A DNA stretch of 36,201 nucleotides from a virus (lineage: Duplodnaviria > Heunggongvirae > Uroviricota > Caudoviricetes), in the IMG/VR virus record IMGVR_UViG_2711768014_000012. One strand, given 5' to 3'. The stretch's first letter is position 1. Every line of letters begins with the position of its first letter. Made by a program: the position numbers. Positions 26,501 to 29,500 of the stretch are shown one piece after another.

Positions 26501-29500
26501 ACCGGTCCCCACTCCACCAGCATTCTTTTCACCTGGCTGTCGTCTTCCCACACCCCCGCGTGGGTCAGGGCGTCAAACAGCGCCTTGTTATAGTTGTCCA
26601 GATCGCGGATCCGGTTATCCGGAGGAAACAACACGATCTCCACTGAAGCAGGTGCCGACGTTGGTTTTGGCAGACGACGTAACTGCTCAACTATTGCTGC
26701 GCACGCCGCGCTCTGAAATTTTCGCCCCGCCGCGCTTATCAGGCTCTTACCAGCAAATGCCCCTTTGTTGGGGTGTCGCCAGTACGTGTTCACGCTGGGC
26801 GGGAAAGGCAGGATCAGCTTCATACTTTCAGGCCTCTCTCATGTAACCAGTGGGTTGCACGCAGCCTGGCGTTTTCCTCACCGGCAAGCAGTGAGCGGAT
26901 AATCCCGACCGCCTCGCTGTCGTCGTCCTTCACCGCGGTATGAAGAGTGATACCCCGGGCCATGCCACGCTTTATCGTGATGACGCCTTTTTTCTCCAGT
27001 GCGCGAAGATGTTCCACCGCTGCATTCACTGAACGGTATCCCAGCATGGTTGCCACCTCCTGATTGGTTGGCGGGAAGCCACGTTCTTTCTGGTAAGAAA
27101 TCAGCATATCCAGCACCTGCTGCTGGCATTGAGTTAACGTCGTCATGCCGCCATCTCCCTGACCAGTTTTTCCGCCTGCTGGCGAACCTGCGCCAGAAAC
27201 GCCTCACCACATGCCTCAAGTTCATCGCGCCCGATGTAGCTGATTGCCGGTCCCTTCCAGGTCTTGTCGAAAACAGCAATAGCACCAGCGAAGAAAGCGC
27301 CTGTCGGCACCTGCTTCTCGTCCTTCGGGATAAACCAGGCAGGCAGTTCAAAACCAATACGCCCGCGAATAAAAGCAATATGATCTGCATCTTCCGGCCA
27401 CCACACTTCGCTGGTGGCAGCTTTGATCAGGAAAACATAGCGTCCGCCCTTATCACGCATGGCACTGGCATGTTTCATGATGTAACGCATGCCGGTGATG
27501 TATTGCCCTTCATGCTGACTGGCGCGGCTGTACGGGGGATTACCAAAGGCAGCACCTTTAAGCTCCGCAAGACGTTCAGACCAGTCATGCGCCAGCGCGT
27601 TGTCTTCCGCAGTGTAATAAGCGGCACATTTGGCGTTATCACCATCAGTGAACAGATCCAGAACAAACGGGCCAAACAGGGTGTTAATTCCCCAGAAAAT
27701 GTTATCCGGCGTGCGCCACTGATCGCCCACTTCCTTCAGTTCATGGGCTGGTTTGTTCCGCAGCTCCACCAGCGCCTGGCAATATTTATTACTCATTAAG
27801 CCCCCACGTAATTCCCTGACAGATACCACTCTTCACCCGATGCAGCGCGCTTGCTGCTTTTCCGTAAGCACCGCTCACGACGCGCCAGAAAATTGTTTCG
27901 TTCTGGCTGGGAGTGGCTTTCACGGAATGCCGCCATCCACACCGTTGCAGCACGACGGTATAAGCCCCTGGACTCCAGTTCTTCCGCCTGGCGGGTCAGG
28001 CACAAAATCACCCGGGGATCGTTAGTGCCGACATAGAAATTGCGCACAGGTCTGGTTTCACGAACTGGTTGTGGTTCCGGCTCCTGCGCTCTCTCAGTCA
28101 GGCGTGGGAAATGTCTGCGTGTATCTCCTTCATAACGGTGAGCCACACGCCCACTCTGACGTAACTTGCTTGCTGACTGCAGAACGCGCTGCCGTGAGTA
28201 ACCTGCAAAAGCATCCGCAATGTCTCCGGAAGTACACCCCGGATGGGCTTCAATGAATTTCTGAACTTCATTCAAAAGACTCATGATCACCCCCTGAATC
28301 CTGCCGGGATCTGGCTGTAGTCCACGTTGTCGTAACTGGCTTTGAAGTACGGGTCCTCGCGTCTGGCTGCAGATACCGCAGGAACTTCCCAGAATTCTTC
28401 GAAATGACGATCCGGACCAAAGAACGTGACAGCCTGTTTCACAAATTGTGTGCCGCTGTTACCCATCGCAGATACCCATCCCGCGTAGCGTTTCACACCT
28501 TCCAGCATGGTTTCGGGGTTTACTCCCTCATTCAAACGGGCTTTCCAGGCTTTGAAGGCTGCAGATTTTGAATTGCCACCAGCACGTTTGGGATATGCCA
28601 GCCATGCCTGCTCAAACTCCGGAGAGTATTCCGGTCGGTTTGAACGAACTCGCACGGACTCATCAACTGATGCACCAACAGCTATTGGTTCATTGACTGG
28701 TTCTTTGACTGGTTCAAAAGAGTGACTGGTTCTGGGTGAATCTCCTGCACTACCCCCTGGTGCAACTCCTGCACTACCTGGTGAATTTGCTGCACCAGAT
28801 AGTGAATTATTTGCACTACCCCCTAGTGAATCTCCTGCACCATCCAGATGAAGGAGATAGATATTACTTGAGTTACCTTTTTCACCTTTCCGGGTGACTT
28901 TTTTTACCAGCCCGGACTCACAAAGGGCCGCAATATGATTCATCACAGAACGTTTGCTAATTTCGCACTGGTCAGCAATATGCTGGTAGCTGGGCCAGCA
29001 CTCACCCTGATCGCTGGCATTATCAGCCAGCTTGATCAGAACCAGTTTTCGCAATGGATTACCCACTCGAATTTTCATCGCTTTAACCATCAGCTCCATA
29101 CTCATGCTGCACCTCCGAGATGCTTCATGTTTTTTCCGGAGCGAAAGGCTATAAGCGGCATACTGACGCGGTAATTACGGCCCAGCGGTTCACAAATCAC
29201 CTTCTGGCATTCACGGTCAACCAGGCTAACACGTAGAACATGCCCTGCAGGCGTGGTGTACCACTGCCCAACTGTAGGAATTGATATTTTTTTACGCTGA
29301 AGCAAACGGCAAATATTGAGGATCAACGGATTAAGCATGACGATGCCCTCCGCTGATATTCAGGAGACGGTGAATATGAAAATTAGCCTTATCCGCCAGA
29401 CGAATACGTTCAGCTTGCAAGTTAAGAAGGGTTTCTACCAGAACCTGATGTGCCTGCGGATCCGAAAGAGTTACCTTGCGCAGAGCACGTAGTGCAGTTG

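Follow-up and report, generated by a model that had tools for sequence, protein, structure and literature searches.

A probable iteron origin of replication inside the initiator gene of an SfV-like lambdoid phage

The stretch of DNA analysed here (the window), the 36,201 nucleotides of IMG/VR virus record IMGVR_UViG_2711768014_000012 (Caudoviricetes), is an SfV-like lambdoid phage or prophage, positions 27700-30800 having DNA identities of 98.8% with Shigella phage SfV and 97% with several Stx2c-converting phages. We consider it probable that 28682-28840 is the replication origin of this phage, situated within the gene for its own initiator protein, as had been proposed by analogy with lambda in an earlier inspection of the sequence made without database searches (the sequence-only reading). 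The gene (28287..29105, minus strand; 272 residues plus stop), identified from the open reading frame list and by DNA match, is SfV orf39, annotated 'replication protein'. Strong comparative evidence points to an origin: the repeats within the gene co-vary with the recognition helix of the encoded protein, occur in shifted reading frames and keep a fixed geometry, and the initiator genes of relatives stand beside helicase-loader genes.

An array of dyad iterons within the initiator gene

Tandem Repeats Finder, the check that the sequence-only reading had suggested, reported an array at 28736-28840 (period 24, 4.6 copies). Inspection together with a repeat search resolved this array into five units, with 15-bp cores beginning at 28736, 28760, 28781, 28802 and 28826, giving spacings of 24, 21, 21 and 24 bp. 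On the gene strand each core is a dyad GTGCA-N5-TKCAC, composed of near-complementary half-sites with centres 10 bp apart and five variable bases between them. All five lie on the minus strand and read, in gene-strand sequence, GTGCAGGAGATTCAC (iteron 1, 28826..28840), GTGCAAATAATTCAC (iteron 2, 28802..28816), GTGCAGCAAATTCAC (iteron 3, 28781..28795), GTGCAGGAGTTGCAC (iteron 4, 28760..28774, a perfect 5+5 palindrome) and again GTGCAGGAGATTCAC (iteron 5, 28736..28750, which adjoins the conserved element described below). The pattern GTGMANNNNNTKCAC has five matches in the 36.2-kb window, all of them in the array, against a chance expectation of 0.25, and none of 100 shuffled sequences reached five; neither Tandem Repeats Finder nor the pattern search revealed a second array of the iteron kind in the window. 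A lambda-type origin calls for at least three direct repeats of a dyad-symmetric site, some 20-24 bp apart within the initiator gene; the window has five. The sequence-only reading had described about five degenerate units of 21-25 bp, and the number and spacing of these units stand; the exact TGACTGGTTC copies that it listed together with them, however, lie outside the array in a separate element.

The array separates two domains of the initiator. Residues 1-88 (28842..29105, minus strand) make up a winged-helix DNA-binding domain with a recognition helix at about residues 48-60 (EISKRSVMNHIAAL). Pfam HTH_36 (PF13730) was matched at residues 17-67 (1.8e-11; 44.1 bits against a curated cut-off of 25), DnaD_N gave a weak match under its curated cut-off (3.6e-05), and B-block_TFIIIC and HTH_20 were also listed. 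AlphaFold predicts a confident winged helix over residues 1-88 with the topology helix-helix-helix-helix-strand-strand, the predicted local distance difference test score (pLDDT) being 84-95 over blocks 1-70 and lower in the wing (68 and 81), and the Foldseek matches of this domain were exclusively winged-helix proteins, among them the DnaD N-domain 2v79. Residues 91-157 have a pLDDT below 50 and no predicted structure, and from about residue 160 a small helical domain is predicted. This C-terminal domain (residues 158-272; 28290..28634, minus strand), the presumed recruiter of the helicase or its loader, matched no family in the Pfam scan. According to this model the repeats encode a disordered Gly/Ser/Ala/Pro linker between the N- and C-terminal domains, in agreement with their earlier placement in a central linker, and a disordered linker would leave its coding sequence free to serve the DNA. 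The whole protein matches PHROG 270 'replication initiation protein' at 2e-88, while its first 140 and last 135 residues match separate PHROGs (for the C-terminal part 26426, 3729 and 1701, the last labelled 'DnaD-like helicase loader') with the split at residues 135-147, a sign of modular build.

No significant match between the initiator and lambda O was obtained with BLASTP or hhalign, Phage_rep_O (PF04492) was absent from the Pfam scan, and the C-domain has no similarity to the C-terminal (P-binding) domain of lambda O. The protein belongs to a different initiator family (HTH_36). The earlier description of it as O-like can be retained in the sense that it probably works as lambda O does, but not as a statement of sequence relationship.

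The comparative evidence comes from 80 relatives, one per species, which were picked solely by two N-terminal peptide motifs and originate from Enterobacterales, Pseudomonas, Shewanella, Marinomonas, Aeromonas, Photobacterium and others. All 80 have the same order of parts, namely the winged-helix domain, three to seven (mostly four or five) dyad repeats spaced 21-24 bp apart, and then the conserved element. With few exceptions the final repeat spacing is 24 bp, and the last repeat begins at a fixed place in all 80, about 17 nucleotides ahead of AGAACC in the element. It could be supposed that the repeats are simply a slippage-prone, low-complexity peptide linker, and that their DNA repetition is a by-product of recent duplication with no function of its own. 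The Gly/Ser/Ala/Pro-rich and disordered nature of the peptide would suit this explanation, as would the varying number of units among near-identical proteins (242 to 302 residues), which is how tandem repeats would behave. Against it, the repeat copies of a gene do not share a single reading frame in 35 of 81 cases, because spacings of 22, 23 or 25 bp occur often; one DNA motif is translated in two or three frames (for example, as GAGDS at one site and as VVQEIH at another) and is present in both orientations, which rules out that the repeat is maintained for its peptide. The half-sites are conserved among relatives while the 5-bp spacer varies, the dyad centre and its distance to the element are fixed across genera, and the repeats co-vary with the recognition helix, as set out in the next section. 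We regard an explanation at the peptide level as highly improbable; the expectation of the sequence-only reading that this region is constrained as DNA is borne out both by these frame-shifted copies and by the near-invariant codons of the element.

Iteron sequence follows the recognition helix

Over all locus pairs, identity of the iteron consensus was correlated with identity of the recognition helix (Spearman rho 0.58; none of 500 label permutations reached this value), and much less so with identity of the wing (0.32) or of residues 1-45 (0.15), even though of these parts it is the wing that lies nearer the repeats. Grouping by the sequence of the third helix produced clean repeat classes, with the dyad centre at the same position in nearly all. 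Helices of the form S(K/R)RSV..H are paired with GTGMA-N5-TKCAC, (G/A/S)RSTVK.H with GGGGCRG...CC (e.g. GGGGCAGGAGCTGCCCC), DRSTVR(K/R)H with TGTAGGCCCAGAAAGCAC, SKSAVRNH with CTGTGC-N9-GCAYAG, GHSTVRKH with TGCYA-N5-TAGCA, and SKRSVMRH, one residue off the helix of the window (N58R), with GTGAC-N5-GTCAC. Two proteins of E. coli type (P0066 and P0072) combine the C-domain of the window with another recognition helix and have other repeats in the same place, namely GGTGGGGCAGGAGCTGCCC, and CTGTGC-N9-GCAYAG spaced 25, 23, 45 and 24 bp; on sequence grounds these can be regarded as a natural swap experiment. Co-variation of the repeat with the DNA-binding domain of its initiator, a hallmark by which we judged likeness to lambda, is accordingly found in this family.

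A conserved element beside the last iteron

Directly after the iterons lies an element of about 35 nucleotides (28699..28736, minus strand; CCC AGA ACC AGT CAC TCT TTT GAA CCA GTC AAA GAA CC), which occurs once in the window and includes two direct repeats of GAACCAGTCA that are universal and lie 17 bp from each other, GAACCAGTCA being TGACTGGTTC on the plus strand. A lineage extension (28682..28698, minus strand) completes a third GAACCAGTCA (28694-28703), begun by the final GAACC of the core, and adds a partial fourth (GAACCAATAG); this part is variable among relatives. The three exact TGACTGGTTC copies noticed in the sequence-only reading were recovered at 28694, 28706 and 28723 (plus strand), spaced 12 and 17 bp apart, with no further exact copy in the window, although they belong to this element downstream of the iterons and are not themselves iterons. 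Translation of the copy at 28723 gives RTSH and that of the other two EPV, so the copies are in different frames and the repeat exists in the DNA rather than in the peptide.

The element is found at the same place in all 80 relatives, with AAn in place of AAA. In the 78 relatives that are in frame, the commonest codon accounts for 0.96 of uses over its ten codons CCC to GTC, compared with 0.58 at invariant residues of the N-domain, and most positions have a single codon. Third-position pairwise identity is 0.85 in the element and 0.47 in the N-domain, amino-acid changes (T/I, F/S/L) are commoner than synonymous ones, and the rare codons AGA, AGT and TCT are retained even in G+C-rich Pseudomonas. 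Near-invariant codons combined with amino acids that vary more than the codons indicate that the element is under selection as DNA. When IMG/VR was scanned with a slightly degenerate 27-mer, at least 120 contigs had one copy each, all inside this initiator gene family. More distant relatives have degenerate versions: the O-like gene of mEp010 has GTGACACAGAGTCAC iterons followed by TAACCAGTCATATATAACCAGT, and LESphi3 has CCCAGAACCGTAATAGAACC. The element has 39-41% G+C directly after iterons at 66%, and in the family average is the least stable stretch within 240 nucleotides on either side.

Conservation of this kind might also arise if the element were kept as a recombination 'linker' at the module junction, through which N- and C-modules are exchanged, and not for origin function. 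Exactly at the element the N-module is joined to at least a dozen unrelated C-domain types, and the PHROG matches of the window protein also split there, both of which would suit a linker. Weak selection for future recombination would, however, hardly hold about 33 nucleotides invariant across genera next to an N-domain with a third-position identity of 47%, and the element keeps a fixed register with the last iteron and is found only with this N-module. Recombination as the reason for its conservation is in our judgement unlikely, and the linker and origin roles are compatible, as function can conserve an element that recombination then uses.

With regard to an origin function, base-by-base conservation suggests a specific contact and not just easy melting. 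The element may be read by a conserved part of the initiator family, possibly as single-stranded DNA after opening, or by the incoming helicase complex. Sequence-specific reading would explain the constancy of the element amid the exchange of iteron specificities and helicase-loader partners. That it constitutes a sequence-specific origin core of a new kind, beyond mere easy melting, is a tentative proposal that we hold to be possible but not probable, and its role is the weakest step of the mechanism outlined below. Our literature search, which did not include the SfV genome paper (Allison 2002), returned no description of the element, its sequence matching unrelated primers only, and nothing on this initiator family was found in the literature on HTH_36 plus iterons.

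A programmed frameshift at the element was considered and rejected, as no slippery site is present and the shifted frame lacks a consistent stop. In two relatives, L117 (Erwinia rhapontici) and L121 (Pseudomonas bharatica), the reading frame is shifted or ends early within the repeat/element region although the element DNA is intact; these may be pseudogenes or sequencing errors.

Helicase loaders and C-domain partners

The gene next to the initiator is DnaC/IstB-like, lambda P-like, DnaB-like or one of two recurrent partners in 77 of the 80 relatives, and often overlaps the initiator gene by a few bases. The DnaC/IstB-like partners are AAA+ ATPases (Pfam IstB_IS21, 1e-13 to 1e-18), the P-like partners match PF06992 (down to 2.5e-57), and the two recurrent partners (268 and 174 residues in the examples scanned) have no Pfam match. 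The C-domains of the relatives are of at least a dozen unrelated types, one of which, in L101, is the C-terminal domain of lambda O itself (40% identity, E = 1e-23) attached to the same N-module. A module partnered with loaders or with the C-domain of lambda O is one used where lambda uses the O N-domain plus ori, and the sequence evidence identifies the family as replication initiators. Relatives with a C-domain homologous to that of the window have a DnaC-like or DnaB-like gene next in 26 of 29 cases, and in Phytobacter, Kosakonia and Enterobacter the gene immediately 3' of the full-length homologue is DnaC-like.

The SfV lineage has a PerC-like gene in the loader position, as does one Leclercia relative. 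Pfam and PHROG scans detected no loader among the neighbouring genes of the window, and tblastn of the DnaC-like, P-like and DnaB-like proteins of relatives against the whole window gave a best E of 0.07, which upholds the earlier remark that no P/DnaC-like loader gene is recognisable; a phage-encoded loader or helicase beside the initiator gene, a further feature of lambda-type origins, is thus absent from the window. The genes for 187-, 278- and 78-residue proteins, neighbours in which the sequence-only reading had proposed to search for loader functions, lie upstream and not downstream of the initiator; the first two products are regulators, one CII/YmfL-like and one of the Ash family, the third is of unknown function, and none is a loader. 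We infer that the loader was lost in the SfV lineage, which would use the DnaC-DnaB of the host.

Additional partner types were seen among the relatives. In L164 (Stx2a_F403; 4388-7294) a 969-residue 'replication protein', probably a helicase-primase, is encoded after an initiator that has the same N-module. Twenty-one Pseudomonas-type initiators with a C-domain of type 1 (e.g. L090, 3393 onwards) share the C-domain motif PRCEIPADMPGPK; the next gene is conserved among them, its product of about 265 residues has no Pfam match, and it is a candidate for an undescribed helicase-loader family.

Proposed mechanism

By analogy, the mechanism would follow the established lambda model. The N-terminal winged-helix domain would bind the five 15-bp dyad iterons, probably as dimers, and as the sites recur about every two helical turns they would lie on one face of the DNA. 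The resulting protein-DNA complex would sit at a fixed distance from the element of about 35 nucleotides and stress it, so that the duplex probably opens there and admits the replicative helicase. Contact with the helicase-loading machinery would be supplied by the C-terminal domain and, given that the phage has no loader gene of its own, would most likely be made with the host DnaB-DnaC complex.

Several observations weigh against an origin at this position. The region has no lambda-like A+T-rich tract, the lowest G+C in any 40-nucleotide window being 37.5%, and no DnaA box or other recognisable host-factor site was found near it. The strict base-by-base conservation of the element exceeds what a simple unwinding element would need, which leaves its role uncertain. 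Some close relatives (the 242- and 250-residue variants) have only one or two repeat units, so that either few iterons suffice or these prophages are defective. The lack of a clear A+T-rich tract and of host-factor sites would also be in keeping with a different use of the repeats, as binding sites through which the protein regulates its own gene or controls copy number, by a transcription roadblock or by pairing of sites, while replication starts elsewhere; iteron-binding initiators often do autoregulate as well. The sites, however, are about 270 nucleotides inside the gene and away from its promoter, in a layout that matches the mapped lambda origin with its mid-gene iterons 20-24 bp apart, and a conserved, locally unstable element is fixed beside the last site, with no other such array in the window. 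Regulation as the sole purpose of the repeats consequently appears improbable, and we favour the origin.

Genomic context

The initiator gene overlaps both the stop of the upstream 78-residue gene and the start of the downstream PerC-like gene. On the minus strand the gene order is cro, the CII/YmfL-like gene (187 residues), the Ash-family gene (278 residues), the 78-residue gene, the initiator gene and the PerC-like gene (164 residues), continuing with genes for Dam methylase, a protein with a LexA-type DNA-binding domain (108 residues), RusA and a KilA-N protein; the cI repressor gene (31050-31724) is divergent from this series. The 78-residue gene (29102-29338, minus strand; PHROG 1153) overlaps the initiator start codon (ATGA) and is kept in SfV as orf38, and its product has no recognisable domain. 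The 108-residue protein (26820-27146, minus strand), encoded between the Dam methylase and RusA genes, has LexA_DNA_bind only (Pfam, 2e-19) and no peptidase domain, and could be a decoy or competitor for LexA boxes. The PerC-family gene 3' of the initiator gene (27796-28290, minus strand) is annotated yfdN in many E. coli genomes. In E. coli K-12 strains (H110, H113) the match is limited to the first 76 nucleotides of the query, in the yfdN overlap region, which points to a vestige of a related module in a cryptic prophage of K-12. In some proteins (P0025, P0027, P0040, P0047-P0051 and P0076) the N-part of the initiator is fused to RusA, Dam or PerC domains, implying deletions in some prophages that start inside or just after the repeat/element region.

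A search for other signals in the origin region produced no promoter-like site and no credible Rfam match, the one match being to the microRNA precursor family mir-875 at 22 bits against a gathering score of 84. An RNA element was rejected, the z-score of the single-strand fold (-2.4) being accounted for by the palindromic iterons. A hairpin followed by a T-run (28882-28906, plus strand), antisense to the coding sequence of the initiator N-domain, is terminator-like, and the count of such sites is at chance level. GC skew was discarded as an origin locator, as it tracks the direction of transcription and does not locate the origin.

Prevalence and significance

Of 5,426 complete E. coli genomes, 897 have the initiator gene at a coverage of at least 80%. 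It also occurs in SfV, in Stx2 phages whose replication type is Eru5 or Eru6, and in prophages of several genera, among them Pseudomonas, Vibrio, Shewanella and Aeromonas. Near-identical proteins (about 87-100% identity; P0001-P0042) range from 242 to 302 residues and differ only in iteron units (about one to nine) and EPVK units, the 272-residue form with five units being by far the commonest, with 2,852 member sequences in its cluster. Toxin output of Stx phages depends on phage replication (PMC8044961). The analysis yields a precise and testable origin map, in which the role of the conserved element in origin opening can be probed directly, and the pairing table of helices and iterons is natural material for studies of DNA-recognition specificity. 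The family also offers an evolutionary example of one origin-plus-DNA-binding module combined with many helicase-recruitment modules. The interest of the finding lies chiefly in the codon-invariant element, the helix/iteron pairing table and the commonness of the gene.

Comparison with known systems

The closest parallel is the lambda origin with its O and P proteins, where the iterons within gene O are located at 39034-39118, 20-24 bp apart. Both systems have several dyad iterons of about 15-19 bp spaced 20-24 bp apart in the middle of the initiator gene, where they encode a flexible linker. As in lambda O, the N-terminal domain would provide specificity and the C-terminal domain the link to the helicase loader, with N- and C-modules shuffled among phages, and relatives of the window protein carry the lambda O C-domain or precede a lambda P-like gene. 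Unlike lambda, the window has a 40% G+C element conserved base by base in place of the A-rich tract, no P gene, and an initiator without sequence similarity to O.

In iteron plasmids such as pPS10, F, R6K and RK2, a winged-helix Rep initiator binds direct repeats beside an unwinding region, and the specificities of protein and iteron are paired. Plasmid iterons lie outside the rep gene and are usually accompanied by DnaA boxes and A+T-rich 13-mers, whereas here the iterons are inside the initiator gene and neither DnaA boxes nor A+T-rich 13-mers were seen near them. The N-module was detected in 37 plasmid records, mostly phage-like, none of which points to a characterised replicon. There is likewise some resemblance to the DnaD/DnaB-type replisome organisers of Gram-positive bacteria and their phages, in the weak DnaD_N match, the fold match to 2v79 and the PHROG label 'DnaD-like helicase loader'; the combination expected of a DnaD-like organiser, DnaD_N above its cut-off together with a DnaD/DnaB_2 C-domain, was not found.

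Phage-specific repeats inside the initiator gene, taken as the origin, have been reported for gene 18 of P22 and of phage L (PMC8022706). The repeat sequences of P22 and L differ from those of the window, and their DnaB-type helicase (gp12) is phage-encoded. Among Stx phages, Stx2a_WGPS2 (Eru6 type) has 98% DNA identity over 81% of the 3.1-kb query, and in Stx2a_F403 (Eru5) the N-module of the HTH protein is the same, its gene containing three GGGGCAGGAGCTGCCC repeats plus the element. The Eru5 and Eru6 types were defined by gene content only, without reference to an origin (Llarena 2021, PMC8044961; Fagerlund 2022, PMC8951638), and according to PMC8951638 nothing is known of the replication proteins of Eru phages or of how these phages replicate. 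Lambda is the textbook case of an iteron origin within an initiator gene, and the window differs from it in its initiator family, its non-A+T-rich element and its missing partner gene.

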